In this document: positions 34,039-63,300 of the stretch, piece after piece
Numbering within the stretch: the first letter of the stretch is position 1
How the letters are laid out: every line of letters starts with the position of its first letter
Assembly (NCBI GenBank): GCA_044892505.1
Contig: CM097882.1
Coordinates: 569,098,001-569,162,000, forward strand
DNA length: 64,000 nt
Reading direction: 5' to 3'
DNA from: Schmidtea nova
Taxonomy: Eukaryota
Program-made: the position numbers and the translations under genes
The notes under the pieces: model-generated
The model's input: only the letters and a program-made list of their open reading frames with translations
Database searches by the model: none
Told to the model about the DNA's origin: nothing

Positions 34039-34524
34039 CAGATAGAATACGATGTCCGATTTGGGAGTCAATTAAATTTTTGCTCGTGTTTGTTTTGTTG
34101 TTGTTATTTCTTTTGTATTTCCTTCGATTAAATAATTCATATAATTAAAATTCAATTACCCGTCACACAACGAAAGAAGTAGCGATAAAAAGAACTTAAA
34201 TACTATCAAATTCGTAGTTTGGTTTTGCCTGTTTGTTTTGTTTTTGATAAATATATAGCCTCACACACACAAAATAGAACAATAATTGCGTAAGTCCTTC
34301 TACGGCCGCGTGAACCCGTAAGCATAAAGGGGGAGTAGTCCTAGCAATAGTGCTCACCTGCCCCTCATTGCTTAACCACCCTGCGCATCACCAACTTGGT
34401 TATCAAGGGAAATAATCAAGGGCGCTCGAGTGTAGATTACGACTATTTATGCATGATCATGGATGGGAGATCCCTAGCAATCATTAAAATTTTTACCAAA
34501 CCGTCCATGAACCCAGCATAAATT

Positions 34525-34851: not shown

Positions 34852-35355
34852 ATGATAAAAACAACTAAGTTAAAACGATTATTTATTCAGCAAATGGAGG
34901 AAAAACTGAAAGAAATCGAAGAATTTCTCAACACAGAAAACGAAACATTAGCAACAATTGGCAAGAAAATAAACCGATTTAGAGAAATTGAATTTCAAGA
35001 ACCCACAACACAGACCGAGGAAACAGATGAATTAATAAAGATAACAGAAAGAACAAGTAAAATCGACATAAAAACCCGCTACAAATGGTACCGAGCACGA
35101 CTAGAGAATGCGGAGCTAAACATTAGATGCAGACAAATAGAACAACAATTAACCCCAACATACAATCGATGGAAGGCGCAAGGGGTAGAAGCAGCGAAAA
35201 AATACCGACAGTGCTATATATGTGAAAACAACGAGATACAAATTATGTTTTTACCTTGCGGACATTTCCGTTTTTGTAAGACCTGTGCCAACAAGCGTGA
35301 CCAGTGTCCGATGTGCAACTTTACTGTGAATGAAAAAATTATGGTTTATTTGTAA
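34852..35355 (+). CDS. Coiled-coil plus C-terminal C3HC4 RING protein (IAP/RNF34-type RING), 167 aa
   Basis: CYICENNEIQIMFLPCGHFRFCKTCANKRDQCPMCNFTVNEKIMVYL; AATAAA at the stop codon. Confidence 0.9.
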   Translation: MIKTTKLKRLFIQQMEEKLKEIEEFLNTENETLATIGKKINRFREIEFQEPTTQTEETDELIKITERTSKIDIKTRYKWYRARLENAELNIRCRQIEQQLTPTYNRWKAQGVEAAKKYRQCYICENNEIQIMFLPCGHFRFCKTCANKRDQCPMCNFTVNEKIMVYL

Positions 35356-45800: not shown

Positions 45801-48800
45801 TTTCGAAAGATGCCCTTTGGATTAACAAACGCACCAGCATCATTTCAGAGATGCATGAATTTCGTCACCCATGGAATAAAGCAGTGTATGGTCTACATTG
45901 ACGATTTATTAATCTACTCTAGCACGTTTGAACAGCACATACAGGATATTCGAGATGTATTCGTTAGACTTAGACAATGGAAGTTAAAACTCAAGCCATC
46001 CAAGTGTGATTGGGCGAAAGAGAAAGTAACATTTTTAGGACATATAGTGTCAGCAAAAGGAAAAGAACCGGATCCTAGAAATATCGACAAAGTAAAGGAA
46101 TGTCCAGTACCAAAAACAATAACCCAGATACAAGAATTTCTTGGACTATGTGGATATTATAGAAAGTTTATAAAAGATTACGCCGGAATAGCAAAACCTA
46201 TACAGGAACTAGTAAAGAAAGATGTATCCTTCATATGGGGAGACGAACAACAAACAGCTTTCGAGACATTAAGAGATAAACTGATAACCGCACCCATATT
46301 GGTACACCCAGACTTCAAGAAGCCATTCTTACTTGCAACAGACGCAAGCGGATATGCAGCAGGAGCAGTATTAGGACAATACGACGATGAAGGAAAAGAA
46401 CGCGTAATCGGATATTATAGCCGGACATTCAAAAAGCATGAGAAAAATTACTCAGTAACCGAGCGAGAAGCGTTAGCAATCATACTAGCAATTAAACACT
46501 TTAAATATTTATTATGGGGACACATCATCTGTATAACCACAGATCACCAACCGCTTGTGTGGTTAGGACAACATAAGGAAACCTCCAGTAGATTAATGCG
46601 ATGGGCAATGCAGCTACAGGAGTACTCACCAGACATAAAATTTAAATCAGGACGAGCGAATGCGAATGCAGACTGTATGTCCAGACTGACATTTCCGGAA
46701 TTAACCGACCCGGATGTACAACGAATTTGTGTATTAATAGCAGAAGATTTAGATTTTAGTGAGTTAAAGAAAGATCAACAGGAAGACAGAGAGTTAGGAC
46801 AGATCATAGAGTTCCTAACATCTCGAAATATGGAGGTATTCAAAGATAATAAAGAATTAAAGGAACATATAGGAAAATATCAACATCGATATATAATAAA
46901 TAAAGGATGGTTATTGATACAAGACGGTGAAAAGAGGCTGATGTGTTTACCGGAAAACAGAAGGAAAGAGATAATGATCCAATACCACGATGGGAAATTA
47001 GGAGGTCATATGTCAGAGAAAAAGACAATAAATCGGATGAGACAGAAATATTATTGGCGAACAATGGAAGAAGATATAAAAGAATGGATTAAAAATTGCC
47101 TAACCTGCGCAACTAGAAAGGATAGTGGGAGGAAATGGAAGAACCCGCTGCAACCAATGCCGATACCAGCAGAGCCAATGACAACTATAGCAATGGACGT
47201 AATAGGACCATTACCAGAAAGCTTAAACGGAAACATTTACATACTAGTAATAACGGATTACCTGACGAAATTCCCGGAAGCATTCGCCATGCAAGATCAA
47301 AAAGCAAAAACCGTAGCAAAAATTCTAGTGGAAGAAATATGCTGCAGATATGGAACTCCAAAACAAATACTCACAGACCAAGGAACTAATTTTATGAGTG
47401 AGTTATTGAACGAGGTGACAAACTATTTCAGAATAGCGAAATTGAGAACTTCACCATATCATCCACAAACGAATGGTCAAACAGAGCGATTCAATGGCAC
47501 ATTGATTAGAATGTTATCAAACTATGTCAGCAGACACCAAACTGATTGGGACGAATACATAAAATTATGTTTAATGGCATACCGAATGTCGATACATGCC
47601 GCAACAAAACTAAGCCCGTTTCAACTTATGTATGGCAGAGAATGCAACATGCCCATAGATTTGGAGTACCAGCCACCATTATCGCAATATATGGAAGATG
47701 ACGACTACGTAACCAAATTCAAAGAAAGAATGCAGGAAATATGGAAAACGGCAGAACTTAACATTAAATTTTTTCAGGAAAGTTATAAGGACCTACACGA
47801 CCAGAAGAAAAATGTTAAAGCGAACGATCTAAAACCAGGAGATTGGGTGATAATAGAAACTCCCGAAATAATACCAGGAACGGTTAAGAAACTCCAAAGA
47901 CCTGGAAGAGGACCTTATGAAATTATATACAAAAAGGACAATAATGCCAAAGTTAAGCTAATAAACCGACCATTAATACGACCCATATATGTAAACACCT
48001 GCAGATGTAAGAAGGTGCCTAAAACGATAACTACAACACCAGAGAATCGAATAATAACCAGATCACAAACAGCCAGGATAAACATGCTCAGAGCAAACAC
48101 CAGCGAAGACGACAAAACAGAAATAAGGCAAAAAGAAATCAGAAATAAAGAAGTCCTATTGAAGGCGAGAGAGATAATGGGAAGATGGCATGTTAGAGAC
48201 GAAGCAGGCATATCAAGGGACATTAGACACATAATTAGCCGTTACGCACAAGGATTACCAACCGAACCAATTATTTCTGAATTATTGATAAAAATCCCTG
48301 AAATACTCTTATTAAAAGATGTAGGAGGACAACCAGCCTTACATAATGCGATTCAGTGTAAAAACATTGAAAGAGCAAAAGAATTCTTGAAAATCGCAAA
48401 AGAAACAAACCAAAACCTAGACGTTGGGAATCGTGAACAGGAAACTCCATTAATGACAGCAGCCATCTACCAAGCAGATAAAGAAATGGTAGATCTGTTG
48501 ATAAAAGCTCGTTTCAGTTGGACAGAACGAGATAGAGAAGATAAAACAGTGCTAAATCACGCGATATGGAGTTCTCACCAACTTATGTTGGAATATATAA
48601 TAGCAAACTCCACGTGGGAAATAGACGAATTAATAAAAGGAGACCTTATCAAAGAGGCAATCAAAATTGGCAAATGTAATACGATCCGTAAGTTAATCGA
48701 ATGGAAACGACCAGAAGAGGATACATGGGTCTTAGACATAAACGAAGTATACAGCGAAGGACAAAACGCACTGTTGAGATACCTTTTGAAATTTACTTGT

Positions 48801-51800
48801 GATCAGAAGACATTACTAACCTTATTAGACAGGGGAAACATAAACATCACAAAGAATGAAGAAGAACACAAATTCGATAAAGAGAAGGAGGTCTTATTCA
48901 ACAAAATTAGGAAATGGTGTGCGAAACCACTTGATAAACTAATAACATACAAAGACATAAATAATTTTAACGATAAATACCAGACGATAGTAAGTGAGTA
49001 CGAGGAATTAGTAAAAATCTTAAACCATCCCGAAAAATGCAAACAGGTTTTGGAGAGAAAAGAAAGAGAAAGTAACAAGAAACTCACACCACTCTTCAAA
49101 GCAGAAGCACCATACCAAGCGAGACTAGATGCGATACAAGAAAAAGCAAAAGAATTGTTACCGGAATTCGAGAATAGTAAACATGCACTAGAAATACTCG
49201 GCGCATTAGTTGAAAAAGTACACGCATACGCAAAAGGAACATACAATGGTAACGACATAGTAATAATAAAAAAGGAGATGCCAGTAACATTCCTATTACC
49301 AAAAGACGGAATAATGCCCATACATAGAGCTCTACGAAATGGCAAAGATAGGAAAGTAATGGAAATTGCAAGAGTAATGCTAAATTGCGGAAGCAATATG
49401 AATATGATAGACGAGAAAGGAGATACGCTTATGGTATTTGCAGCAAGGGCCAAAACGAAAACAAAGGTATTAGAAGAACTATACAAAGCAGGTGCAGGAC
49501 TTACAGGAAAGACAGATAAAGATAATTCGATATTGGATGTAGCATTATTAACACACAATTGGGAAATGGTCAATTTCATTAAAACCGTCCCAAATCAGGA
49601 AGAAATAGATCACCTAACTGATACGGTCAAGAAACCCAGTGTACTAGCAATGATGAACAACGTCGAACTAACAGAATCAATACTTACGTGGATAAATCCG
49701 AATACTAACGAACCAGCATTCAGGATTAATAAGTTTACAGAACATAACCAAAACTGGTGTATAAGAAGTGCCTTAATAACGTATAAATGGCCAGAGATAT
49801 TGAAGATGTTTATGGAAAGAAAGGATCTAAGAATCACAACCAGCCCGAAAGAAGAAAAATACACAGGCAAATGGAAAGAATTAATGAAGACATACATCAA
49901 CAATTGGATTAAGGCCAAAAAGGAAATCTTGGAACATAAATCCACTAACAAAGTAATACCGGAGCAGGTAGAAACACAAGAATTTGAGGCAAGTAATCTA
50001 ACGACATTAGCGTATGCGAAACTAATAGAAGAAATCAATGTCGAGGACGACATTTTCGACGAGCCAGGGGGAGATGACAACACAGATAGTGACGACGGTA
50101 ACAACTCAGAAAATTCAAGCGATCACGAACCACCCGATAAAGGGGAAAACGAGAGAAAAGACAAGAAACGAGACAAGGAAGGAAAGAAAGGTGAAGACGA
50201 AAAACAAAGAGATGAAGAGAGAAAACAAGGAACAAACGACCAAGGAGATAAAAATGACACCCAAAGAACAGGTTATAAATCAACCATAAAACCATTCTTC
50301 AAACCAGAATTACTATTATTAACAGTGATTTTAACGTTAATTAACCCAAGTCAAGGAATGACATGTGAAGAAAGGGCAATAATACAAATAAAAAACGCGA
50401 AAGGAATCGAACGAGTATGTTGGTCAAAAAAGGACAAAATCACGGAACAAAATAGTCCGATGGATTGCAGAATCTCAAAACACGAGCAAGAGATCATAGA
50501 GATCAATGACCTAGATCTAAATACCTGGTACAAAATATGCACCGTTAGAAAACAAAAGCATCCAAGATCACACAACACCATCGCATGTGCAAAATACCAA
50601 ACACCTAAAGCAGCCATGACAATACAACAGTCACCCAAAGGAGATTACATCATCGGAAAATGTGGAAGGACAGAGACACAGGGAACAGAAAACAAAAAAC
50701 CCCAGGCAACAGATAAGCAAACAACACCAACCCTACGAATTACAATAGAGAGGCCTGAAGCAAGAGTTGCCACAAACGAAACCGAAAGAGTGTCTTACCA
50801 AATGGAAGTATTATGTTTAGCACTCATACTAATAATGATAAAACGATTAGAGGAAGGAATAGAAATTGAAACTATGACAATAACAGAAGTAGAAGATACA
50901 CAGAGTACTAACATAAAATGTTGGGCGAGAAATAACGAGGAAATCGGCGTAAACGAAATAAGGAAAAGTCGAAAACCAACAACGAATAAAGTAATTAAAA
51001 TATCCGAAGTAAAAGCAGATAAGACGTACAAACTATGCCTACTAGAAAAAGAAACGAACAAGAAAGGTACCACAAAATGTAAAACATTTCAACCCGGAGA
51101 AGTAATAAAGTTCAGAAGGAGAACGAGGAAGAGAAATAAACAAATCAAGCGGAAAGTAAACATAACATTAGAAATAAAAGAGATAGAACCAAATGTGAAA
51201 GGAGTATGCTGGAGGAAGTACGAAAAAGAAGTAAATAAAAGAACGACACCACAATGTCGAACAAACACGGGAACAACGACAATTCAAATAAAAGGTTTAA
51301 AAAGTAAACAAACCTACGAAATATGTCTGGTAAAGGAAAATGATCAGATAACGATAAACGATCTAGAATGCGGAATATATACAACTTCATCCGGAACAAG
51401 AACCAAAACGTTAACACGGAAAAATAAAAGGAAACAACAAAACAAAGGAAAACCGAAGTACACCACTACCTTTAAAAACAATAAACAACCAACAAAACAA
51501 GAAGTTACGACGAAACCCGAGAGAAAAACATCAGCAACTCTAACATTATGGAAAATAGAGAATAAAACATTGAAAATATGTTGGATAATAGTACAGAAAC
51601 ATATAAGAAGACAATCAAGAGAGTGCAGAAAAACAAATAAAGAAATCAAGATCGAAAAACTACAATTTAATAGCGAGTACGAAGTATGCGCAATAGAAAA
51701 AATGGACGCACTAGGAAACCAACAAGAAAGATGCGAAACCTATTATACACCAGCAAACGCGACATCAAAAGGAGTAGCAAGGAAAATCGAATTCAAGGAA

Positions 51801-53759
51801 CTAAGCCAAACAAATGAACAAATGGACGCAGAAAAAACAATAATCGACCCTCAAGCAAAATGGACACCCGAAGAAGTTATCAAGGAAGTCAAAAGAAAGC
51901 AGGAGGAACGGGAACAATTAATAAGAAAACTAAAGGGACAATACGGAATAATGTTCAACCAAAGCGAATCTATACAAACAGACGAGAATAAAGAAATTAA
52001 AGAACTAATCGGCTTAGGAATATTAACAGCGACCATACCCGTAATAATCGCGTTATCAGCTATATGGATACGCAAGATAAACCCAAGGAAATCGGCAACC
52101 CAATGGCCAAATATAGACAGTACAAGCCATGGAGTTGAAATACTGGAAGAAAACGCACGAGAAGAACCAAAACCGACCAGGAATAAGAAAGAAGCAAAAA
52201 TCGCAAAACCAGGAATGAACAACAAAGACAAGGAAATAAAAGAGATTAAAGGAGAAGAGAAAAAATATGAAAGGCGAACCAGAAGCCTACCGCAGAGTTC
52301 AAAATGGTTGGGTCTAACAATAATATTGACATTAATCAATAGGGAAGAAGCAATAAACCCACAGACAGGGATAAAAATAATAAATGTCCAGGAAGTCGAG
52401 AAAATATGTTGGTATAGAGAAGATGAACCAATTGGAGAAAATAACCCACTAAAATGCATAATCCGAAAATCCGACCAGGATATAATACGAATAGAAGAAA
52501 TGGACAGAGGAATCATGCATCGGATATGCATAATAGGAAAGGAAAAGAAGTCGGGGCTACCTAAGACAGTCGTATGCCAAAAATATGAAACGCCTGGACT
52601 CGAATGGTATAGAGTAAAACCAACAAAGAAAGAAATCAAAAACACCATAGATCGACCAGCAACTCAGATAAGAAACACAACGGATAAACCAGGAGAAGGA
52701 GAGAAAAGCACCAATAAAACGAAAGAAAGAATATCACCCCAACAGGAGTGCGTATGCATAGCATTAATACTAGCAATGTCCAAACGTATCGATAAAGGAA
52801 TAATAATAGAACAAATGGCCATAACAATAAGGAAAACAAGTAGCAACAAACTATGCTGGGGAACATACAACGAACCAAGGAAGGAATACCAAGTTCAGAC
52901 AAGCGACGAATCACAAACAAACAAGGAAATCGAAATTCAAGAAATACAAATGAATGAAGAAGGAAGTATATGTATCTGGGAGAGAGGAATCCAAGAGGGA
53001 ATAGAGCATTGCAAGACATTCCAAAAAGGAGAGATACTGAAATTCGAGGAAGAAGAATTAACAAAGACAGAAAGAACTCTGACATTAACAGGACTCGATC
53101 AGACAGTTAAAGGAATATGTTGGACAAAGCATAACCCAGAAGGGGAAGAAGACAACCTAACCCACTGTAAAGAAACAGGGAATAAAGAAAAAGTCGAATT
53201 AAAGAAAATGGAAGTAAATAAGACATACGCGATATGTACTTTCACTAGAAAAGGTTCAGAAAAACCAGAATGCGGATTATATCAGATCTCAGAGAAACTA
53301 CAACAACAGATCGAACCAGGAAACGTAGAAAACCGAACAAAAGAAAATAACGTCAAACAACTACTAAATCGCCATTGGTCTACACAAGAAGTAATGAACA
53401 AAGTCAAGAATCAAGTACAGAAGGAGAAGAAGCCAGAGGCTCAAACCCAAAATGAGATAAAAGCGAATCAGAATAAAATCAAAGCAACAAACCGTGGAAA
53501 AACAGTAATAGGATTAATTAGTATAGGAATATTAATAGCATATGGGATAATGACGACAAGCATGATAATATATTGGAGATACAGAAAGAGAAACAAAGCG
53601 ACAGCCATACAATGGCCAGATATTAAAATTATGAAGCAAAGAATAGAAATACCAGAAGAGATACAACAAGAATTCCAAAGAAGAACGAAAGGTAAAGAAT
53701 TCTGGAAACAAATAGAAGATGAAGAACGATACGAGGAAAAGACGATAATGATGGTATAG
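36849..53759 (+). CDS. gag-pol: Giant polyprotein (5636 codons; first ATG 37281): Gag with 3 CCHC, UBL-like x4, AT-hook, Bcl-2-like, glycoprotein, PR, RT, RH, IN, ankyrins, FN3-like/TM modules
   Basis: CCHC 37992-38144; DTG 44679; YIDD 45894; TDASG 46338; IN HHCC/DDE ~46984-47500; GPY ~47910; 16.9 kb without a stop. Confidence 0.97.
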   Translation: MRKGAKSVAIKPTKKQKAGKDNHKNPQGSKARKIIRDKSIIENDKLSVVSNSSSNKENQAEPKENQTSEIESDETNNDNIEELENEVEPEVETNESDNESIISDNIIIRETESDSSSSETEDEHNNELETRRNESKITQDSGIEMSEPREEIKDKFPGEPFNGDASKLEIFLKEFGIFVEVCKWKAETTASRIQLYLKDSALDLYLEAKNGTNPPTSWTAIKDFFQQTFGINKVLSEAFIEFSMRKQKMNESNAVYASELKKLAKSVFKDGGPINEELMAAIFIGGLRRPDIRAQVGCQGCKTIDQALETANRFELHMIGSEGRIYLAMDTAQTEPEVNLNNHIPNSQQLNRPPPQRRNEGNKAQNFESQNNYNPPRQTKQCKTCGKLGHWQQECYQNLNCGKCGVKGHSESRCSTIICFNCGRPGHYSRNCGQKSNQRGNWQSNGNRPNYGNQANTVNRPDYGNQQNNNNNNQNKTTPKEIHLMQEVQRLTELINNTTRGNPQTNQQQISMMRKIESENERLNRESQARHAQEWARIQREDEQKQQERERQPLRINMLRATNQTDTREKEITLEMNSIDPNPADNESRKEIVQKDEEVEKEAEKGVETEINQEERKEIWKKGMMVIMPNDHMFRFQYNAKEEVKVLFNKVNQMIPGVTKLPREAFLQIEGAPSVKLKLTDIWENMGVVETKRNVMRIKEIEPEEIPPPIRHETRIRRIFEGKMIRRRLKEIDELGKKMEKVEVIEDKSEPTLEIDKNEPEPTENIQGETNQIAHINMLRNTTREFSDEEEDSDISSLAGDILNESEDENKEREVIKTSEPTQIKVDEIQKLLDNSLEVIYNEEFMDKKQYRKFMKALLQMNYKEWLQDREVDMLNRYVGKLIEEPLLNYTISIIINTSTPRIWIKTPFTDDIYRWVEDRLGSSYKNKFIYSQNRLVKKRTHLVETGIWPGEITLLSICDEKEEENLQEVAREANTCFERRIKPRLEYEKERVLRKNLNSLIEQIIPQVKKHRKELMRSEYEKLKQCIECIRDTSHTRWSQISHDKLIAKMGKTIFRQGKITDLKISVELPNEDTKEIEVVADCTIKELINIINETLVQREPEDEWEDDIIIQYNEHVLWDHDERRLYKIGIWDNHQTIHVIRMDDTPRETAKDEKRERERRKEVVRKLQQIVDIYRNWRIWPEWENVLGELNLNRRRRTPVEKQWNEKGKCWVPKEGEYEEEYERGMEDDCESEMRRVCMVTRKATPIDLDGPETAAIWVEKEKQKTEEFVEILKTNAHGKRKIIKGLADFFVVNGEDITCLRKVAKAIAEYKRVNEWCPEQLDHVIRKWRNQEFSQEIPQKVHLRIIYPNKDKEELWVGIAEKIRDIKKKLRYEPPFHLQHQGRSLDNSLEIGITPVQLDLMNTLTVEAIAGQPLKRKEENHKPHGSISTPSPMELVPTTGTSSRRSETTPRGNREMTPPQPYDVDEILTDSDDMIEELTELTKEKDDNIFERIQELPTTVQVTNTGETEVEEEIIIEEVNDLTEDETRGANVENVRLTQEMERWLEERANEPRDVTEETGRATRFVETGTGMDRRPRGRPKTDPANVVIRNKDEKRQDQWEVCLKKLNKIAEIKEKETTPICQGEEWISKTIMEILAIIDPELKKYWRITEISEKAKSLHSAIAPILPEFIKEKTKSNHLDWQGTTTLIKKLTEGAETDNKYVIAIAYTIYNLLTLSRGRPKPTALERHIKNTAKIITREIEPYIINKGGWETFIKTNQKKTQAKNMKKKFEKILEELEKEQTGTGNAKSSMNLSSIIMMMLIWMISTDSATAFEVFDCDQMKLGEKYSLRGTEQCKDATPVELQKIKKEQWYHVYQEAELIKTMVNECKVQKTRFAFYCGRGHYSAIVMPGTEREPIVLQGEDCEALFKHGEVTTRDKIKIKGKPGMMMQQTYYVAGRITGGEGYCQGETYPMFGTLATNLVVMDTYIVELKSYEAFFEPTTGEMKTLSMCKIDRSMCQTGMSTLVYKPKVNECQLQLLQGAKFDEIQGKTFQEEDDDDKDRAKHLKEALENKRQLKPDHREKRIEMRATPTVLITTNQDVGMRFIKGKATLKCSTTVYETNYPGIYVSKQEVPNAKPKIDTMDIKLHLYVNNKMDFLFHRGQASLQKVYYDLINNDCILNREILKTKLAVAITNPDSAMPLLPLREGHFGRVVGEAMYVYICEKTHASLAATTQLKPGTCTNELEIDYKGKVRYVQPVTRIINPPGFEPNPFNCSNAYGPLYQKPDGKWVMFPGRSEVIAPREFELMQLSKDRQFSDVDVSNNGIYSPKDLEAARQNILFPARREALLSNIVTITGGTDYREGPNYELLLSPAHFKKATENMMKAMWGRFLIFGQMMAGILGVILIIQIVRVIITQMLACFDIYKREKKVNWKMVVGFLPFLAKTMVLHGHSKDIHRIKRLLKILAKMKGTDEEVGRKFKKIMNDEQARQQLKRERKGLWERVKGYKTQNDSSDDDDDDDDYKGGQVYKNQAPQYIEKNPADAWKCYAPPPTMYQEPLQGGKNSTMQMMPMTNVYPMIPEDYKMRRCRSVDPQGDTHTIAVMSSNTGPVLTTTIEINGREIEAMIDTGANISAIDIKWIPQEQRRDIERTNVHVIACSKEVVEVAGRWWVKIRHLNTEIDTYVAVIPALSVPCIIGTDLMPALFKEIVIDLGTMRLKDRTGQICAIEAKVTSSKQMIIPARKEKICYVKIDPTIQGDMIFEPSKRFEKRKALPMARGLVNINNNGEIPINVVNFDEEDKIIYENERLGKLTPMMDIELPIAGAEKDKEPTWNIDSELLNEDQRKQLEKLLMEYKDIFAASDLDLGTCDVTLHTIPLTDETPIALRPYKLAEAQKAVAEAEVKKMLDAEVIEPSCSPWQFPVVMVKKKDGTQRFCIDYRRLNTVTKRDTYPLPDINEMLLTLQGAAYFTSLDLKSGYWQIKMKEEDKEKTAFTIGRDLYQFRKMPFGLTNAPASFQRCMNFVTHGIKQCMVYIDDLLIYSSTFEQHIQDIRDVFVRLRQWKLKLKPSKCDWAKEKVTFLGHIVSAKGKEPDPRNIDKVKECPVPKTITQIQEFLGLCGYYRKFIKDYAGIAKPIQELVKKDVSFIWGDEQQTAFETLRDKLITAPILVHPDFKKPFLLATDASGYAAGAVLGQYDDEGKERVIGYYSRTFKKHEKNYSVTEREALAIILAIKHFKYLLWGHIICITTDHQPLVWLGQHKETSSRLMRWAMQLQEYSPDIKFKSGRANANADCMSRLTFPELTDPDVQRICVLIAEDLDFSELKKDQQEDRELGQIIEFLTSRNMEVFKDNKELKEHIGKYQHRYIINKGWLLIQDGEKRLMCLPENRRKEIMIQYHDGKLGGHMSEKKTINRMRQKYYWRTMEEDIKEWIKNCLTCATRKDSGRKWKNPLQPMPIPAEPMTTIAMDVIGPLPESLNGNIYILVITDYLTKFPEAFAMQDQKAKTVAKILVEEICCRYGTPKQILTDQGTNFMSELLNEVTNYFRIAKLRTSPYHPQTNGQTERFNGTLIRMLSNYVSRHQTDWDEYIKLCLMAYRMSIHAATKLSPFQLMYGRECNMPIDLEYQPPLSQYMEDDDYVTKFKERMQEIWKTAELNIKFFQESYKDLHDQKKNVKANDLKPGDWVIIETPEIIPGTVKKLQRPGRGPYEIIYKKDNNAKVKLINRPLIRPIYVNTCRCKKVPKTITTTPENRIITRSQTARINMLRANTSEDDKTEIRQKEIRNKEVLLKAREIMGRWHVRDEAGISRDIRHIISRYAQGLPTEPIISELLIKIPEILLLKDVGGQPALHNAIQCKNIERAKEFLKIAKETNQNLDVGNREQETPLMTAAIYQADKEMVDLLIKARFSWTERDREDKTVLNHAIWSSHQLMLEYIIANSTWEIDELIKGDLIKEAIKIGKCNTIRKLIEWKRPEEDTWVLDINEVYSEGQNALLRYLLKFTCDQKTLLTLLDRGNINITKNEEEHKFDKEKEVLFNKIRKWCAKPLDKLITYKDINNFNDKYQTIVSEYEELVKILNHPEKCKQVLERKERESNKKLTPLFKAEAPYQARLDAIQEKAKELLPEFENSKHALEILGALVEKVHAYAKGTYNGNDIVIIKKEMPVTFLLPKDGIMPIHRALRNGKDRKVMEIARVMLNCGSNMNMIDEKGDTLMVFAARAKTKTKVLEELYKAGAGLTGKTDKDNSILDVALLTHNWEMVNFIKTVPNQEEIDHLTDTVKKPSVLAMMNNVELTESILTWINPNTNEPAFRINKFTEHNQNWCIRSALITYKWPEILKMFMERKDLRITTSPKEEKYTGKWKELMKTYINNWIKAKKEILEHKSTNKVIPEQVETQEFEASNLTTLAYAKLIEEINVEDDIFDEPGGDDNTDSDDGNNSENSSDHEPPDKGENERKDKKRDKEGKKGEDEKQRDEERKQGTNDQGDKNDTQRTGYKSTIKPFFKPELLLLTVILTLINPSQGMTCEERAIIQIKNAKGIERVCWSKKDKITEQNSPMDCRISKHEQEIIEINDLDLNTWYKICTVRKQKHPRSHNTIACAKYQTPKAAMTIQQSPKGDYIIGKCGRTETQGTENKKPQATDKQTTPTLRITIERPEARVATNETERVSYQMEVLCLALILIMIKRLEEGIEIETMTITEVEDTQSTNIKCWARNNEEIGVNEIRKSRKPTTNKVIKISEVKADKTYKLCLLEKETNKKGTTKCKTFQPGEVIKFRRRTRKRNKQIKRKVNITLEIKEIEPNVKGVCWRKYEKEVNKRTTPQCRTNTGTTTIQIKGLKSKQTYEICLVKENDQITINDLECGIYTTSSGTRTKTLTRKNKRKQQNKGKPKYTTTFKNNKQPTKQEVTTKPERKTSATLTLWKIENKTLKICWIIVQKHIRRQSRECRKTNKEIKIEKLQFNSEYEVCAIEKMDALGNQQERCETYYTPANATSKGVARKIEFKELSQTNEQMDAEKTIIDPQAKWTPEEVIKEVKRKQEEREQLIRKLKGQYGIMFNQSESIQTDENKEIKELIGLGILTATIPVIIALSAIWIRKINPRKSATQWPNIDSTSHGVEILEENAREEPKPTRNKKEAKIAKPGMNNKDKEIKEIKGEEKKYERRTRSLPQSSKWLGLTIILTLINREEAINPQTGIKIINVQEVEKICWYREDEPIGENNPLKCIIRKSDQDIIRIEEMDRGIMHRICIIGKEKKSGLPKTVVCQKYETPGLEWYRVKPTKKEIKNTIDRPATQIRNTTDKPGEGEKSTNKTKERISPQQECVCIALILAMSKRIDKGIIIEQMAITIRKTSSNKLCWGTYNEPRKEYQVQTSDESQTNKEIEIQEIQMNEEGSICIWERGIQEGIEHCKTFQKGEILKFEEEELTKTERTLTLTGLDQTVKGICWTKHNPEGEEDNLTHCKETGNKEKVELKKMEVNKTYAICTFTRKGSEKPECGLYQISEKLQQQIEPGNVENRTKENNVKQLLNRHWSTQEVMNKVKNQVQKEKKPEAQTQNEIKANQNKIKATNRGKTVIGLISIGILIAYGIMTTSMIIYWRYRKRNKATAIQWPDIKIMKQRIEIPEEIQQEFQRRTKGKEFWKQIEDEERYEEKTIMMV

Positions 53760-53884: not shown

Positions 53885-54241
53885 ATGACCGAACAAGACG
53901 AAACCACTGAAATAACTATGGCTATGAGATGGAAAGCACAATGCGATTTATTAGTACGAACAGTCAACTCATTACAGAACCAATTAGCGGAAAAACAAAT
54001 GTTACTATCTGAAAGTTATAACAACTGTTTCGAACAATTACACAGAATAGAAGAACAACAAAGAGTGATAACCGAACTCACCAGAGAAAATCAAAATATA
54101 AGCAATATCAATCAAAGACAAGCAATAGAAATAAACCATTTAACACGAGGAGAAAGAGAAGGATCCGAAGAAGGATGGATGAGTTGGGTAATAAATAGAC
54201 TACACAACGAAGCGGAACCAGATTCAACGAACGAGCCATAG
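53885..54241 (+). CDS. Accessory coiled-coil protein, 118 aa
   Basis: ATG in TTTAGAAAATG context; heptad-rich Q/E/N sequence; element-like codon bias. Confidence 0.75.
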   Translation: MTEQDETTEITMAMRWKAQCDLLVRTVNSLQNQLAEKQMLLSESYNNCFEQLHRIEEQQRVITELTRENQNISNINQRQAIEINHLTRGEREGSEEGWMSWVINRLHNEAEPDSTNEP

Positions 54242-54334
54242 ATAAATAAAGCGGAAAATTGTAAATATGTAAAAATAAAAACAAGAAAAACCAAAAAATA
54301 AATGACAAGTCGAATGTATATATTATTGTAGAAA

Positions 54335-55711
54335 ATGGACAGAGAAGAACGAATAATCGAAATTTTGAGATTAGAAAACAGAAAATGGAGCAAGAGGCTC
54401 ACATGCGGAAAATGTAACAATTTATTACGAGAACCCAGACAAACGATATGTGGATGTAGAATATGTACAAAATGTATACAAGAATTAGATGCAACAGGAA
54501 TAACAACATGCCCAGAATGTAAGGAAGGAAGAATAGTGTTGGACGAAACCAGAACGGACAAAGCAACCCAAAGAGAAATTATGAGCACCACAACGGAGTG
54601 CGTAAATACACCTTGTACATGGCAAGGACAAATAAGTAATCTAGAAAATCATATGGAAAAGTGCGAGGAGAAAAGAGCCGAATGCGAGAAGTGCCAACAA
54701 ACAATAATTCTAAAGAAGAGAGAACAACACAAGGACGAATGTAAAGAAGAAGAAATCGCATGCGAGTATTGTGAAACTCGAGAAACAAGGGGAAAAATCG
54801 AAGAAGAACATTTGAATATAGCAGAGGAGAAAGTATGCGGACAATATGTAAGTAAATGTCCAAACAATTGCGAAATAACAGAAGAAATAAAGTTACATGA
54901 ACATTGGAAAGTATGTACCGAAAGGCCAAGAGAATGCCCATATAACAAGCATGGATGCAAGGAAAAGCGGACGCGACAAACAATGAACAAACACCTAGAA
55001 GAAGCAGCACTAACGCATGTGGAAATGACAAACGAAACGACAAAAGAAACGGAACAGACAATCCAGAAATTAGAAAAAGAAGTAGAATCACATAAGATAA
55101 TGATGAGTTTACTACTAGAAACAAGAGAGCAGTTTGAACTAACTCGCGAAAGAATGGAAAAGAAAATAATAGCCATAGAAGAATTAGGAAAAGGAATGAA
55201 AATACAATATAATCAATTAATACGAGAAATTGACGAAAGAAGGGACTTACCAATCGCACCTTACCTATGGAAAGTAACAGATTTCAGAGACAAACTAGCA
55301 GAAGCCAGAAATATGACGAAAACAGCAGTAATAAGCCCACCATTTTATTTATGGAAAAACGGGGTGAAAATAAGATTGAAAGTATACCCAAATGGAGACG
55401 GAAGAGGACAAGGAACACACGTGTCAATATTTTTCTCGCTATGTAAAGGAGAATACGATGACCTAATAGAATGGCCCTTGAAAGTAGGAGTCATTATAAG
55501 AATCAAAAGTCTGGGAAAACCAGTAGAAAAATTCTTTGAAACAGACAAACATACGAGTACAAGTGAAAAACCAACAACGGAATGCGGACTAGCAGCAGGA
55601 GAACCAATGTTTATAAGGACAGAAAACCTATGGGAGCGACTATATGCAGACACGCTATACATAGAGATGGAGAGGCATGAGAAAACAGACAGAAAAGGAT
55701 GGTTGGCGTAA
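54335..55711 (+). CDS. TRAF: Full-length intronless TRAF-like protein (RING, TRAF zinc fingers, coiled coil, MATH)
   Basis: RING CGKC...EPRQTICGCRICTKC...CPEC; Zn fingers H..KC...C..C; MATH YLWKVTDF...SPPFY...KVYPNGDGRGQGTHVSIFF...GEYDDLIEWP. Confidence 0.95.
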   Translation: MDREERIIEILRLENRKWSKRLTCGKCNNLLREPRQTICGCRICTKCIQELDATGITTCPECKEGRIVLDETRTDKATQREIMSTTTECVNTPCTWQGQISNLENHMEKCEEKRAECEKCQQTIILKKREQHKDECKEEEIACEYCETRETRGKIEEEHLNIAEEKVCGQYVSKCPNNCEITEEIKLHEHWKVCTERPRECPYNKHGCKEKRTRQTMNKHLEEAALTHVEMTNETTKETEQTIQKLEKEVESHKIMMSLLLETREQFELTRERMEKKIIAIEELGKGMKIQYNQLIREIDERRDLPIAPYLWKVTDFRDKLAEARNMTKTAVISPPFYLWKNGVKIRLKVYPNGDGRGQGTHVSIFFSLCKGEYDDLIEWPLKVGVIIRIKSLGKPVEKFFETDKHTSTSEKPTTECGLAAGEPMFIRTENLWERLYADTLYIEMERHEKTDRKGWLA

Positions 55712-55823: not shown

Positions 55824-56885
55824 ATGGGAAATATAGAAGTAACCTTACAAGAAGTAACCGTACATCAAGACGAAATGATCAGAAATCACATGGAGCGGAT
55901 TGGGATATGGATTCACGCCTATTATCGTAAACAGGAAGAATTGGAAAGACAAACCGAAGTACTAAGAGAAGCTGAAGAAAGGAATCAAAGAAGTAGAGAA
56001 AAAATAGAGGAAGTCTATAAATTACTGAGGCAACAAAACGAATACTACAAAGGAATGATGAAAGAGCGACGAGAGGATAGAGATAGACAACAGATAAAAA
56101 CAGACCACAAGATCCAGTCAATCACCGAACAAGCAAGATATTGGAAGAAAGAGGCAAAAGACTCTTACAAGGAAGCAAGGGAGATAATTGAACGAACAGC
56201 GTATAGCGATGATTGGAAACTGTTTAAAGAGATCGATGAATTAAAAGAGGAATTAGGGCAAAAGATCAGTCAAGAAGCGTCAAATAAGGTATGGAGTAAG
56301 AAAAGACAACAATTCATCAGAGAACAAGCCAAGAAAATTAAAGAACTAACTTATCAAGTGCAAAGAATGGGAGATGATTTAGCCAATCAAGAACAGTTAA
56401 AAGGTATGCTGACCGGAATGTGGAATCACAAGGAGGAAAACATGAAAAGAGATATAAATGGATATCAAGGAGTGATTACCCAGAAGAAAATAGAATTAAA
56501 AAGGACTAAAGAAAGAATGGAAGAAACAAAACAGAGTTATGAAGAAAACATAACCAACTTGACAAAAGAAAACGAAGATCTGAGAAAGAAACTAACAGAA
56601 AAACCAGTACCCACAAAGGAAACAAGTATCACAGCAGCAGTGACCGAAATGATAGAGAAAGAAGAGAGAGAGAAAAAATTAGCAGAACTAGAAAAACAAA
56701 TAGAAACCCTAACAGAGCAGGCGAACTATCTGGAATACTTATTAGATGAAGAGATCCAGATATCCCACACGTACCGAGAGGAAGTGGAAATGTGGAGGAG
56801 TACGGTAATATGGATGCCACTCCCCATAAACCAGGTGGAACCTCAAGACGAAGGTTTTCACGAACCTAACGAAACCCTCGTGTAA
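55824..56885 (+). CDS. Long coiled-coil protein, 353 aa
   Basis: E/K/Q-rich heptads along most of its length; TATAGAAATG start context. Confidence 0.85.
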   Translation: MGNIEVTLQEVTVHQDEMIRNHMERIGIWIHAYYRKQEELERQTEVLREAEERNQRSREKIEEVYKLLRQQNEYYKGMMKERREDRDRQQIKTDHKIQSITEQARYWKKEAKDSYKEAREIIERTAYSDDWKLFKEIDELKEELGQKISQEASNKVWSKKRQQFIREQAKKIKELTYQVQRMGDDLANQEQLKGMLTGMWNHKEENMKRDINGYQGVITQKKIELKRTKERMEETKQSYEENITNLTKENEDLRKKLTEKPVPTKETSITAAVTEMIEKEEREKKLAELEKQIETLTEQANYLEYLLDEEIQISHTYREEVEMWRSTVIWMPLPINQVEPQDEGFHEPNETLV

Positions 56886-56964: not shown

Positions 56965-57525
56965 ATGAGAAAGCTCGCAATACCAATACTCCTAGGGTTA
57001 ATAACCATCACCCTACAGAGAGAAGATCTACAACTTAGTGAAACCCAATTACGAGTTCTACCCGACAAAACCTACCAAAAAGTAGACAGCCTAATCGAAG
57101 AAGTAATTAAAGAAATCAACGAATTCCGACAGAAATATCCCCACAATCAAGATCATCAAATCCAACAAATCTTAGATAACCAACAACTGAAGCTAAAAGA
57201 AACCCAAAAAACCCTGAAAGAAGGTAGAGAGCCCATAAAAAGCCTAGCCCAAGCTGAAATAGAATATCAAGAGAAATGGATCATAGCAATCATCATAATC
57301 CTCTCAATCAGCGTAACTATCATCGCAATCACAATCCTGATTGCCTCCTACCGGATAAAAATCCTCAAACAGAAACAAACCATCGTCAATCAAACATCAA
57401 GGCGAGACAAACGAACCCAAAGACGTATGAGAAAACATCTAGATCAAATTCAGACCCACTACGAATTAGCTACAATCAATGAGAGAACTCAAACCCAACC
57501 CAATGCGAGCCGGAGGATCGAATAG
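56965..57525 (+). CDS. Predicted type I membrane protein, 186 aa
   Basis: Signal-like MRKLAIPILLGLITITL; helical ectodomain; TM WIIAIIIILSISVTIIAITILIASY; basic tail. Confidence 0.8.
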   Translation: MRKLAIPILLGLITITLQREDLQLSETQLRVLPDKTYQKVDSLIEEVIKEINEFRQKYPHNQDHQIQQILDNQQLKLKETQKTLKEGREPIKSLAQAEIEYQEKWIIAIIIILSISVTIIAITILIASYRIKILKQKQTIVNQTSRRDKRTQRRMRKHLDQIQTHYELATINERTQTQPNASRRIE

Positions 57526-59025
57526 ACTTTGTGAACATCTCTGATGAACCTTTAACTATCCTGTGACAATAATCTGATAATATTCAACTAGCCTATAACC
57601 AATCTCATGATGTGTATAAATTCTATCACCTTAAGTGATTTTCTTGTGTTTATGTATATATCTGTAAAACTTTTTATGTATGATGTTATAAGTAGTTATG
57701 TATAATTAATTGCGGGACGCAATTTTAGGGGTCCCCGAGTGATGTTGGGCCCACCAATTGGTCTAAAAAGGCAAAAATATTGTACTAATTTAAACAATAA
57801 ATACAAATAATAACCACAAAAACATTCAAAAAAACCTAAATTAAAAATTAAAATAAAATAATAAATAATAATTACTAAATTTCCAGCAAAGGAAGAAAAT
57901 CAAATTGACACAAGAACGAGCAGTATGGGGGTCTGAAATAAGAAAATTACCAATAAAATCAAATAAAAGTACAATTAATTGGTTAATTACTTGAAAAAAT
58001 CGAGACCACCCAGCGAGAAATCTGAACCGGAAATTTAAAATGGTTTATATTAAAATAAAATAACAAAATTACTTTGATGGACGGCCTGATCCTGATTGGT
58101 CAATCTGACCAACTGGATCAGTATAAATACCGATCCAAAAATCATACAGATAACATCTAAATACTTAGCTACCGAACTGATTTATCATAGTCAACTTTGA
58201 TACGATAAATACTGTGAAAATTTTTGGAAAACACTGCATCGTGGATTGAAACAGTAAATTTTCTTTTGTATTGTATTTTGCATAAATTTTTATGATATGT
58301 TTCATGATTCCCATTTGTTTTATTTAATATAATTTATTACTATTACTCTATTTTTCTTATGCCATTATTTTATGATATAATAAATATACTTCCTCAGTAG
58401 CTTACGCTGCGAGGGAGCAAGCCGTAAATGTGGGATTTCACCGTTCCACAAGATGGTGAGCAGAGTTTCTATTGGTATTCTTTATTTAATTTAATTTTAT
58501 CGGAAATTTCACGGTACGGTAAAGTTGTGCAGGGACAAGGACACGAGTGAAATTTGTAGACAGTGGTTAACATTTACATTCGATCAGACAGGCGAAAACA
58601 AACTATAACATAAATTATCAGGTCGACTAGATCGATTTTTTCATATACACGCAAATTTTTATAAATCAACATAGCTGATCGAAATAATGTCCGGACACAC
58701 CGAGACGATTTCGACGTTTCAACTACAGTTTAATTTAGACATAAACAACGACATATTCGGATCGACCCTACTGATTAAATAAGTAAAATCGTAACCTGAT
58801 CGCTGTACATAGCGCAGGTAATAATAGGTAAATTTTTAATATTCCGATCGCTGTACATAGCGACGGTGTTAATTGAATAGTTTGGAAAATATTTTTTTTT
58901 TTTCATTCTCCCTTTTCACATTTTTTTTTGTGTTATTGATCAACGAGCAGAGCACTTTTTATCAGGTCTCACAAAAATTTACGGATTTATCACAGTAAAT
59001 TCTATTAGCATTATTATTTTCGCAG

Positions 59026-59526
59026 ATGAAATCAACGATACTGGATGAATTTCTAACAGCTCAACGTCATGTGGCACGGGTCGAGAATCCTCTAATCCGG
59101 ACGCAACGGAAGAAATTGAAGTCGCTTCCACAGGAACTCCTCAGAACGCTAAATGCGTTGATGTATAAATGGAGAAGGGAACTAGGAAAGAAATGCCCAT
59201 TTTCGATTTGGGCCGGTGGATTGGATACCATCGTATATCGAGGAGGCCCCGGATGGGAAATTCAGGACGAAAGAGACCGGGAGACGACAGCTCTGTTCGT
59301 CATAGTGGTGTCAGACAGTGAAGGAAATCCAACGACAGTGATCCATTGGGGATATGTCTCACCCCTCAAGTTGCTTCAATTCGGGTTGATTCCGAATCAC
59401 CTACCAAAAACATGCCATGAGCGTCCCAAACTCAACTGTTCAATGGCTCACCTCCGACGAGATCCAGTAAATCGCGGGTTGCATATTACTCCCGTACACG
59501 GCCTCAAGCGAAGTGTTTTCCACTAA
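59026..59526 (+). CDS. LTR-encoded ORF A, 3' copy
   Basis: Same translation as 32764-33264. Confidence 0.7.
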   Translation: MKSTILDEFLTAQRHVARVENPLIRTQRKKLKSLPQELLRTLNALMYKWRRELGKKCPFSIWAGGLDTIVYRGGPGWEIQDERDRETTALFVIVVSDSEGNPTTVIHWGYVSPLKLLQFGLIPNHLPKTCHERPKLNCSMAHLRRDPVNRGLHITPVHGLKRSVFH

Positions 59527-59709
59527 ACATTATATTCACATTTTTATAAGCTAAACGATTTCAATAAATTAAATGGTGTTGATCCGTGTTTTGTTTGTTC
59601 TTAGTTAAATTTATTTCTATTTATTTAATCATATGATTTTTACACTCGACGGATAATATTAATCTTGGTAACATGTTTGATGCATTATAAATTGGGTTTG
59701 TTATTTAGC

Positions 59710-60300
59710 ATGACGGAAACTAGCCAACAGCGAGAATTGGACAAGGCGTGGAGAATCCGCCGAGCATTGGAAAAGGAGCTAAACCAGGAAAAAGCCTTAC
59801 GAGCCAAAGCAGAAGCTCAGATTCAGCATTTACGGACCAGCTGGTTCGCACCAGCTCGCATGAAGGAGCAGATGAGTCGGACAGAAAGGGCTCAAAAGAC
59901 AGCTGACGATTATCGGACCGAATGGGAAGCAACAAAAATTGAGTTGCGCCGATGTCTCCATTCGGTGACGACTTCATTTATCGAGTCCGAATTGAAAGCA
60001 CAAATCCGACCCATTACTTACCAGAAATGGGTAGGAGAACAGAGAGTGGCCTGCTCAGTCAGTACAGACACCGATGGACTCGAGGCAACCACAGTGCAGA
60101 ATCGGGTGGAAACCACCACTGTACCAAACCCCGTCGGAAAAACGAATAAGCGGAAACGAATCGGCTCCAAGCGCCGTCGCCAAAGAAAGCTGTTTTCACA
60201 ACAATTGCAGACACAAGTAACCACTATGGCAGAAATGTCGGAGGCCGAGTGGTTATCAGAGATATTCCCTCCAGAAGGAATTTTCAAAGAATTTCTATAA
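59710..60300 (+). CDS. LTR-encoded ORF B, 3' copy
   Basis: Same translation as 33448-34038. Confidence 0.72.
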   Translation: MTETSQQRELDKAWRIRRALEKELNQEKALRAKAEAQIQHLRTSWFAPARMKEQMSRTERAQKTADDYRTEWEATKIELRRCLHSVTTSFIESELKAQIRPITYQKWVGEQRVACSVSTDTDGLEATTVQNRVETTTVPNPVGKTNKRKRIGSKRRRQRKLFSQQLQTQVTTMAEMSEAEWLSEIFPPEGIFKEFL

Positions 60301-63300
60301 CAGATAGAATACGATGTCCGATTTGGGAGTCAATTAAATTTTTGCTCGTGTTTGTTTTGTTGTTGTTATTTCTTTTGTATTTCCTTCGATTAAATAATTC
60401 ATATAATTAAAATTCAATTACCCGTCACACAACGAAAGAAGTAGCGATAAAAAGAACTTAAATACTATCAAATTCGTAGTTTGGTTTTGCCTGTTTGTTT
60501 TGTTTTTGATAAATATATAGCCTCACACACACAAAATAGAACAATAATTGCGTAAGTCCTTCTACGGCCGCGTGAACCCGTAAGCATAAAGGGGGAGTAG
60601 TCCTAGCAATAGTGCTCACCTGCCCCTCATTGCTTAACCACCCTGCGCATCACCAACTTGGTTATCAAGGGAAATAATCAAGGGCGCTCGAGTGTAGATT
60701 ACGACTATTTATGCATGATCATGGATGGGAGATCCCTAGCAATCATTAAAATTTTTACCAAACCGTCCATGAACCCAGNNNNNNNNNNNNNNNNNNNNNN
60801 NNNNNNNNNNNNNNNNNNNNNNNNNNNNNNNNNNNNNNNNNNNNNNNNNNNNNNNNNNNNNNNNNNNNNNNNNNNNNNNNNNNNNNNNNNNNNNNNNNNN
60901 NNNNNNNNNNNNNNNNNNNNNNNNNNNNNNNNNNNNNNTCTAAAAATTATAAACTGATTTGAAATAATTGGTGATAATTAGGAATATTATTAAATAATTT
61001 TAAGATAATTAAGGATAATTGAATTCATTAAATTCCGTTACAAAACCAATTATAAAAAGTATTTAAGGATATAATTAAACAAAATATGATACAGCGCATA
61101 CTGAAAATATTCTGTACAGTTATTGAAATAGGCTGAAATAAATAGAATACAAGTTGTATTAATTTGATTGACAACAGAAACCTTAGGTGAATAATCTGCT
61201 TTGCTATAGTTTGTATAAATGAATGTTTGACATTTTCGATAAATCTTTTGAAATTTGTATTAAGTTCAAAGAAATGTGAGTTAATATTTTTGAAATTTTA
61301 GTAATTTGATATTTATTCATATTTCATTACAAAATTTTAGAGAAATAATTTACATCGGTTCTTGGGTAAAAAGGATTTTGTTGGTATATGGGCTGTTAAA
61401 AATTGTTTTGCAAGGAATTACAGCAACCCCTTGATACCGTCATGAAAATGTTTAATCTCTTTCACTTGTGTACCCATAGTTACTTCTTAGTAAACTATGT
61501 TGGTATTGTACACCGTGTTGCGATAATTCAATGAGCAGGTGAGATTCATTGCAAAATTCACTGCTAATTGTATGATCTCTTTCGGCTTCCTGCTGCCGAA
61601 AGAGGGTCTTACGCTCATAATTAATTTAAAGGTCATATTAATTAATCAACTCTTAACTCTAAAACATCGCCTTATAATATTTAACATTCACTCCTATCTG
61701 TTTGAAAAAAAGATATCCCAAATAAAACATTTCTATTCCCCCCTGTTTCACCTTTCAAGTACATCTCCCAATTCCTTCTTACCCTAGCGAAACTATATAA
61801 TTCAATAAGAAATGGTCAGAAGAAAAATCAAGAACCTCCAACCGATCGGGAGCTTATAACCTGTGAGTCAACAGAGCTCCTCTAAATCAGTTTAATTAGG
61901 AAATCATTTGAGAGAGCATATTTAACAAGCAAACTTATAGTTAAAATATTTATTAACCATTTTAAATTACAGCTCAGTAAAAATAAAACATAATTGAAAA
62001 TTACAAGGAAAATATCAAACGTGCGTTAATTCATTCGTTCCACTGAATAAATTCAATTGATACTGGTGCTGGATGGTAGATTTAAAATTTTAAAATGTCT
62101 TCTCAGTAAAAAGTAAAAATTAAAAGCTTTTCTTATGATTTTTCAGCGTCTGTTTATACTAATATTGTGTGACACCCACGCGTTCTGTTCACTAATTAAG
62201 AATATTTATAATTTAATTTATATATTTATTTTAATATTTGAATTATCAATTTTTATAAATGAATTATTTATTTATTTTTCAGTAAAATTAGTTTTACAAT
62301 TTTAATTTATTTTCTAAATATTTATTTTAAATTTCACTAACTTATATGTAAAAAATATAGCATTATCCTGTTTGCGATAATTGATTAAATAAACAAATTT
62401 TCCTATTTTAGTCCCTATTTCTGTAATTTTATCGATATTTTAATGGGCATTTCTTCTATAATCTTTAATAAATCATTCTCTTTTTTTTTATACTAATTTT
62501 ATCTTTGATCATGCCTTTGTATATAATATACGAGCAAAGATCTTTCCCATTCAATTTTCGTGTCTTCGTATGTAAATTTGACCTGCACTCAAATTGTGTC
62601 CTCTCTTTTTAGATGCCTCTTTTTATCGCTTTATCCCTACCTCGACTGACTTATGAAATGCGGTTCGTTTGCCTGCTATTTGTGATTTAATATTCGATAT
62701 TCTTCTTTTCTATTTTTACTGTATGTGTTATCGTGTTTTTTGAATTCATATATTTTTGTGAATTTTCAATTGTAAAAATATTTTGTTTAATGAATTTTCT
62801 TAAAAAGGAATTGCAAAGAAAGAGATATAGGAAAAGCCCTTGGAATTCTTTTCATAAAAGTATCAAAAAAGTATCAAAAATATGAAAACATGAGATTTGA
62901 TCACAATTTTAAATATAATTTCTGTATTATATATGACAAAAGAATTTGTAATTTTTATGAGGTACGGTGATGTTTAAAATTATTTTGCAATTAATTTTAT
63001 ATAAATTCTTTTTTAACAATAAAAAAAAACCAAAGCACAATTTCCATGGAATTGAGATTTCTCAACATGAATAACTTTGGATTTTTCTTGTAATTTTCCA
63101 ACATTAGGAATAATGAATTAAATAAATCTAAAAGGCACTTCATGTATTTTGACATAATATTTTGACATATTTTTGACATATTTTTGAAATAAAAAATTAT
63201 TAAAAACTACATGCAACAAAATTCCAAGAAAGACTATCGAATTTAATATTATAATCAAAACAGTATCAAATTTATAAGACAATTTTTTTTCTCGATTTTT

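Follow-up and report, generated by a model that had tools for sequence, protein, structure and literature searches.

A full-length TRAF gene in a Burro-type giant retroelement of Schmidtea nova, probably captured once from planarian TRAFs with an all-cysteine RING

The 64,000-nucleotide stretch of the Schmidtea nova genome analysed here (the window) contains an open reading frame (ORF) for a complete TRAF-like protein, which raises the questions of whether the gene belongs to the host or to a mobile element, where it came from, and what it may do for its carrier. A first-pass annotation regarded it as a TRAF captured by an LTR element. This assignment holds, because the ORF is located between LTRs that are 99.87% identical over 3023 nt (Table 1), and in 30 of 30 fetched copies the end of a polyprotein lies upstream of it and a coiled-coil ORF downstream. 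The carrier is a ~29-kb planarian Burro-type Ty3/gypsy giant LTR retroelement, and the near identity of its LTRs indicates that this copy was inserted recently.

Table 1 Features of the TRAF-carrying element, in window coordinates
Feature	Position	Strand	Description
5' LTR, aligned part	31494..34516	+	Contains ORFs of 166 and 206 aa
RING ORF	34852..35355	+	167 aa; C-terminal C3HC4 RING (zf-C3HC4_3, E 3.1e-12)
Polyprotein	37281..53759	+	5492 aa; gag to integrase, ankyrin, C-terminal membrane-spanning units
Accessory ORF	53885..54241	+	118 aa; upstream of TRAF; acceptor-like site before ATG; homologues in families B and C
Predicted 3' splice (or trans-splice) acceptor	54315..54331	+	T-rich tract; TAG ends 3 nt before TRAF ATG
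TRAF ORF	54335..55711	+	458 aa, no intron; all-Cys RING, linker helix, zinc fingers, coiled coil, MATH
TRAF ORF parts (aa)			RING 24-62; TRAF zinc fingers ~85-225; coiled coil ~225-302; MATH ~306-446
Accessory ORF	55824..56885	+	353 aa; coiled-coil-like; downstream of TRAF; acceptor-like site; homologues in families B and C
ORF	56965..57525	+	186 aa; predicted membrane protein, hydrophobic N-terminal and one internal stretch; homologue in family B
3' LTR, aligned part	57758..60778	+	Direct repeat of 5' LTR

Burro elements of dugesiid planarians (GYPSM1/Burro1-4) are reported to be ~30 kb long and to encode a ~5,000-aa polyprotein with an env-like fusion protein between gag and protease, RT-RH-IN, ankyrin repeats and a BCL2-like region, as well as accessory ORFs and cargo with MATH_TRAF_C and BIR domains (PMC6431247). 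The BIR domain is described there for the S. mediterranea elements and is not stated for those of D. tigrina. The element in the window is of the same ~30-kb size, with LTRs of at least 3.0 kb placed 26.26 kb apart, and its single frame of the ~5,000-aa class contains gag, an env-like region before the protease, RT-RH-IN, and ankyrin repeats. The Pfam matches of the polyprotein comprise CCHC knuckles, a mononegavirus-type fusion glycoprotein (PF24664, E 5.7e-71), protease, RVT_1, RNase H, rve, and Ank_2. A faint BCL2-like stretch (E ~0.6 to Bcl-xL) had no Pfam match, and Pfam gave no BIR match in the nine translated frames of the element. Therefore, we call the element Burro-type rather than Burro1. 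The RING of its 167-aa ORF is presumably of the IAP-like type. Four ORFs follow the polyprotein, in the order 118 aa, TRAF, 353 aa, and 186 aa.

Additional features were recorded in the window. At 34517-34545, CA is followed by TAAATTTGGGGGCTC..., which we take to resemble a 5' LTR end and primer-binding site. A 29-nt tandem repeat (35798-36236) is present in the leader that separates the RING ORF from the polyprotein. The ORFs of 166 and 206 aa are intact in each LTR (32764-33264 and 33418-34038; 59026-59526 and 59680-60300) and matched no Pfam family over the cut-off; the 206-aa ORF has homologues in further LTRs and in pieces resembling solo LTRs. The polyprotein tail (50100-53759) consists of repeat units that contain Cys along with signal-like and membrane-spanning stretches, and it has one faint FN3 match (E 0.04). 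The motif QWP[ND]I stands right after the membrane segment in both tails of family A, the element of this window, and is absent from the tail of the related family B. The idea of a self-contained receptor, in which membrane proteins of the element recruit its own TRAF, was abandoned, since the C-terminal units of families A and B contain neither PxQxT/S/D nor PxQxxD; matches to a degenerate four-residue motif differ from tail to tail. Two long near-perfect palindromes (25144-25319 and 20398-20565; 176 nt at 98.9%), possibly MITE-like, have a related sequence at 31257-31314 adjoining the 5' LTR. Two overlapping C-rich ORFs (466 and 320 aa, 17761-20006) are flanked by a 67-nt direct repeat (17510, 20233).

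The description of the gene as an intronless RING-zinc finger-coiled coil-MATH ORF was borne out by Pfam, solved chains, and structure prediction, which together point to the architecture of the TRAF family, with a RING followed by TRAF zinc fingers, a coiled coil, and a C-terminal MATH domain. The MATH domain (MATH_2, E 1.9e-20, residues 310-445) and the zinc fingers (zf-TRAF, E 1.9e-7) were recognized by Pfam over the cut-off, and RING models matched residues 24-62 weakly, below the cut-off (TRAF3_RING, E 0.029). Solved RING-zinc-finger chains of TRAF6, TRAF5, and TRAF2 matched the N-terminal 160 residues (E 5e-14 to 5e-11), with CGC of the element opposite CGH. An AlphaFold model based on a 31-row alignment had a mean pLDDT of 88.6 and a pTM of 0.45, and the TRAF-N coiled coil was predicted as one helix (residues 225-302) with pLDDT above 90 along most of its length. 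The best Foldseek matches of the model were the TRAF domains of TRAF3 and TRAF2 (E 2e-15), and the N-terminal domain of TRAF6 was matched with E 1.6e-11. The predicted fold thus resembles that of vertebrate TRAF2, TRAF3, TRAF5, and TRAF6, from which the element TRAF differs in its shorter coiled coil and in the residue at RING ligand 4, His in the vertebrate proteins. An initial homologue search with the element TRAF returned 11 proteins, none of them planarian and none element-borne.

Two regions of possible functional importance are altered. At the hydrophobic E2-contact position of RING loop 1, where TRAF6 has Ile and TRAF2 has Ala, the TRAFs of families A and B have Lys and that of family C has Ile; the position also varies among host TRAFs, and those of one host group, the C3 cluster, likewise have no Ile there. 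The linker-helix Arg is retained (R80, by alignment). In the MATH domain, SSSF and SGCP of TRAF3 are replaced by TSTS and AGEP, in stretches that we take to line the peptide-binding groove. The same stretches are variable among host TRAFs and differ in each of the three element families. Given these changes, the partners of the element TRAF may have changed.

The RING contains eight Cys residues (24, 27, 39, 41, 44, 47, 59, and 62) in the C4C4 spacing C24-x2-C27-x11-C39-x-C41-x2-C44-x2-C47-x11-C59-x2-C62. Ligand 4, His in C3HC4 (RING-HC) domains, is Cys41 in 30 of 30 copies in each of two overlapping sets. All eight Cys are intact in 29 of 30 copies picked by their flanks, and the remaining copy has a stop at the first Cys. 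The first-pass annotation contrasted the CGCRIC of this RING with a CGHRFC of TRAFs and inferred a signalling rewire or a dominant negative. The Cys is real, but the contrast does not hold for most TRAFs of this genome. We read the RINGs of 12 non-element loci (L031, L033, L036, L073, L099, L117, L118, L119, two at C1:154.6 Mb, L201, and L203), a number that is a lower bound; in two further loci, no in-frame RING was present. Ten of the 12 have Cys at ligand 4, whereas L119, a locus interrupted by a stop, has Ile and L203 has His. Among the non-flatworm RINGs read, ligand 4 is His in 10 of 11 and Tyr in one. Seven database proteins also read CGC, the single named one being TRAF-4 of Dendrocoelum lacteum (P0014). 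The ten host RINGs and the Dendrocoelum TRAF rule out the all-Cys RING as an innovation of the element; the comparison indicates that the His-to-Cys change is a trait inherited from host TRAFs and not a sign of a rewired protein. Nor does it imply a dead or dominant-negative protein, because C4C4 is a known class of RING E3s. CNOT4, entered as a C4C4 RING E3 with an E2 complex (PMC3166285), has eight Cys ligands as here in an unrelated protein context.

The host genes with the all-Cys RING form tandem clusters outside Burro LTR pairs. When the flanks of all host TRAFs but L117 were checked for Burro proteins, none of the genes was inside such a pair. L036 was considered as a second element-borne capture and was treated as a host gene, since its position is 1.8 kb beyond the 3' LTR of a non-autonomous element next to it and its sequence shows no A skew. 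Most of the host all-Cys genes are single open frames, so that the lack of introns was rejected as proof of retro-capture; the His-type L203 has its RING and MATH in different frames, as expected of a gene with introns. Among named sequences, those closest to the host TRAFs come from Dendrocoelum and Dugesia. The triclad TRAF2/3/5-like genes (L031, L033, L036, L073, L099, L118, and Dendrocoelum TRAF-4) share with the element TRAF the domain order, the all-Cys RING, the single frame, and a third zinc finger with a long HLN...C spacing, which is shorter in coral and ray TRAF3. They differ from it in identity (26-30%), in a longer MATH loop and other groove stretches, and in codon usage. The A-rich, element-like codon bias noted earlier was confirmed, as the fraction of A at four-fold sites is 0.74 in the element TRAF and 0.60 in the polyprotein versus 0.30-0.40 in seven host TRAFs. 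As a separate observation, at least 11 dispersed sequences (L062-L072, for example G000:C3:97177311-97177967 and C2:263423997-263424653) match the RING-zinc-finger half of L036 (residues 1-219) at 78-95% identity, many with stops, and no Burro proteins were found in the two 20-kb flanks read. They point to a TRAF fragment without MATH that some carrier has recently spread in a separate event.

The element TRAF is maintained by purifying selection. At least 92 copies are present in the genome: all 92 matches scored, drawn from 3602 candidates, are full length with 95-100% identity, and four have stops. For the calculation of dN/dS, 30 loci were chosen by upstream flanking DNA, avoiding choice by protein score; the 431-nt probe gave 511 candidates, which are not copy numbers, and 40 were scored. 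The mean pairwise dN was 0.018 and dS 0.149, a ratio of 0.12 (bootstrap range 0.08-0.17; 100 codon resamples, 60 pairs), so that the check proposed in the first-pass annotation spoke against neutral evolution. The ratio was 0.10 for the RING, 0.14 for the zinc fingers, 0.095 for the coiled coil, and 0.10 for MATH, and all four domains are under purifying selection. Five of the 30 copies contain stops. When copies were chosen by protein score instead, the ratios (0.109 for family A and 0.098 for B) were biased low, and these values were superseded. Selection among copies shows that the gene is useful to the element and not in which direction it affects signalling. Four near-identical TRAF copies at ~33-kb spacing (L012, L013, L015, and L025; G000:C1:590.84-590.94 Mb) are either a tandem array of elements or an assembly repeat.

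Genome searches with outside TRAFs identified two further element families, B (at least 40 matches at ≥95% to a 401-nt probe) and C (11 matches at ≥96%). Their TRAFs are 52% and 44% identical to that of family A, both with the RING motif CGCRMC, and lie in the same gene order, between homologues of the 118-aa and 353-aa ORFs downstream of a Burro-type polyprotein. Families A and B are 95% identical in RT and 90% in integrase versus 49-56% in the TRAF domains; the element TRAF thus evolves far faster than RT (52% versus 95%). Rearranged copies were also found. In a family-B-like copy (G000:C2:167486001-167506000, L196-L197), an internal deletion has joined gag-env-protease and the MATH domain of TRAF into one 1304-aa frame, and a deletion of this type is one natural route to the layout with MATH inside the polyprotein reported for S. 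mediterranea Burro. Two non-autonomous Burro-like elements with LTRs at least 99% identical lack RT-RH-IN. One (G000:C2:197025500-197048000, L193-L195) retains env, ankyrin, and TRAF, and the other (C2:416797000-416821000) has RING, protease, and ankyrin parts and no TRAF match.

Phylogenetic trees group the element TRAFs with the all-Cys host TRAFs. The first of two main trees was calculated from 23 of 33 rows, after ten short, long-branched, or redundant rows had been dropped, and in it the TRAFs of families A and B form one clade with the all-Cys host genes (100/99). When family C was added (23 rows), the three element TRAFs formed one clade (100/100) nested in the all-Cys triclad clade (100/99); a phylogeny with host TRAFs had been proposed in the first-pass annotation. 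Six of the seven CGC database proteins belong to this clade, and P0026 is placed there on a long branch; the His-type L203 is outside. Two changes on the tree explain the ligand-4 states, and holding the elements with the His-type TRAF2/3-like rows was rejected (p-AU 0.003). The long third zinc finger common to element and triclad host TRAFs agrees with the trees. A candidate host sister of the element TRAFs is the C3 cluster, with support of 94/86 and then 85/55, for element rows that are long and compositionally odd. Together, these data suggest one likely old capture from the triclad all-Cys host radiation, before the element split into three families. The codon bias, the branch lengths, and the presence of the trait in Dendrocoelum indicate transfer from host to element. 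The gene was earlier called a long-domesticated host gene; its age and host origin stand, but domestication is the wrong way round, as the element took a gene of the host.

The position of the gene behind a long polyprotein is accompanied by a possible route of expression. The site before the TRAF ATG is among the three most T-rich of 709 YAG sites, on a purine-rich strand where 13 of the 709 have at least seven T in the preceding 14 bases; three of these 13 precede, by 2-3 nt, the start codons of the 118-aa, TRAF, and 353-aa ORFs. All 30 flank-picked copies retain the TRAF site, as do families B and C. SL trans-splicing occurs in flatworms. We predict that TRAF is expressed from a dedicated spliced or SL-trans-spliced mRNA. 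Four sequencing runs of unspecified kind covered the element evenly, as DNA would, with no supported splice joint at the acceptor, and are uninformative on expression.

Based on these results, a role of the element TRAF can be proposed. The protein would be translated from its own spliced or trans-spliced mRNA through the acceptor just before its ATG. Its RING would still bind two zincs as a C4C4 RING, and the coiled coil and MATH domains would trimerise. The RING and linker helix could pair with host TRAFs; through such a helix, a TRAF unable to bind E2 may still assist the RING of a partner (PMC5702613). The added TRAF activity would damp degeneration and cell-death signalling of the TAK1-p38/JNK type, alongside the IAP-like RING and the putative BCL2-like domain of the element. 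We put the chances at about even that this full-length accessory gene, likely captured once from the host all-Cys clade by a Burro-type element, promotes survival as a TRAF mimic in cells with an active element. The proposal is favoured because an intact, selected TRAF is located beside an IAP-like RING. It is further supported by RNAi of host TRAFs, which increases cell death in planarians (PMC7586133), and by the finding that traf2-1 inhibits infection-driven tissue degeneration (PMC4993586). The Burro1 IAP (B-IAP, with BIR and RING; Lee et al. 2026, as described in PMC13465017) is also a host-type signalling gene on a Burro element linked to cell survival; it was functionally tested and, according to that second-hand account, protects stem cells, whereas the role of the element TRAF is a prediction. 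Against a pro-survival mimic stand the Lys at the E2-contact position in families A and B (Ile in C), the MATH groove unlike that of TRAF3, the divergence of TRAF far beyond that of RT, and the stops in five of 30 copies.

The same Lys and groove changes would suit a decoy that enters host TRAF oligomers, is incapable of engaging E2 or receptors, and blocks innate signalling against the element, for example that linked to TBK1. Planarian TRAF2/3/5 homologues are reported among the TBK1-induced genes of a response that limits foreign-DNA expression (PMC13563047), and the env-like gene makes antiviral pressure possible. We consider such a dominant negative, which the first-pass annotation had also suggested, possible but rather unlikely. 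The Cys change behind the idea is inherited from the host, the RING is conserved as much as MATH, family C retains Ile, and TRAF2 and the C3-cluster host TRAFs likewise have no Ile at loop 1. In addition, published knockdowns of host TRAFs raise cell death or degeneration, which a blocker would mimic (PMC7586133, PMC4993586). The proposed NF-kB read-out is doubtful in planarians, because NF-kB homologues are unclear there (PMC13563047); our genome search for the RHD gave no match, but neither did its control.

Purifying selection on all domains, a groove that is different in each family, a second RING ORF within the element, and the rapid divergence of TRAF from family to family relative to RT would also be consistent with a retargeted ubiquitin ligase or adaptor. 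Its changed MATH groove would bind a host restriction or silencing factor, and its RING, alone or with the other RING ORF, would direct degradation, as retroviral accessory proteins do. The loss of the loop-1 Ile in two of three families argues against a ligase, and we think this explanation unlikely.

Transfer in the reverse direction, or in both, would make the element lineage the sister or the source of the intronless all-Cys host TRAFs. A tree with the host all-Cys TRAFs held together and the elements outside was not rejected (p-AU 0.102), and most host members are single open frames. However, the host genes have no A-rich signature, are clustered in tandem away from Burro LTR pairs, and have shorter branches, and the trait is present in Dendrocoelum, whose family is not listed with the Burro expansion in a second-hand account (PMC13465017). 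Therefore, we regard a reversed transfer as improbable. The stops in five of 30 copies, expected after insertion, could be ascribed to a gene that is carried neutrally or to a host gene residing next to the element. Both readings are refuted by the position inside near-identical LTRs, the full-length copies, dN/dS of 0.12, constant flanking ORFs, and intactness in three families at 44-52% identity.

In known Burro elements, MATH is described as part of ORF1 in S. mediterranea and, in D. tigrina, as part of an accessory ORF located upstream (PMC6431247). In contrast, the element described here encodes a complete RING-zinc finger-coiled coil-MATH protein in a separate ORF downstream of the polyprotein, and its IAP-like ORF has no BIR by Pfam. 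The expansion of TRAFs in planarians was already known (PMC6109357). Our literature searches turned up neither a Burro element with a complete TRAF gene at its 3' side nor triclad TRAFs with an all-Cys RING, although both may be shown in figures or supplements of the first Burro description and of the 2026 paper on Burro1. What appears to be new is a full-length TRAF as a 3' accessory gene, originating from one old capture and provided with its own predicted splice acceptor.

A complete, selected signalling-adaptor gene thus joins the known cargo of Burro elements. We speculate, with considerable doubt, that Burro-type elements run a host-survival cassette, in which full TRAF, IAP-like RING, and a putative BCL2-like domain are each expressed from an mRNA spliced or SL-trans-spliced on its own, that hundreds of TRAF copies make up much of the planarian TRAF expansion and contribute real TRAF signalling in stem cells, as a second host-transposon mutualism, and that the element may have seeded the intronless all-Cys host TRAFs. 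Element copies can confound both counts of planarian TRAFs and TRAF RNAi. Because Pfam RING models give low scores to the all-Cys RING, a triclad TRAF trait, planarian TRAFs may have been annotated wrongly as RING-less. The element TRAF provides a concrete RNAi target for the question of whether Burro cargo beyond the IAP protects host cells.
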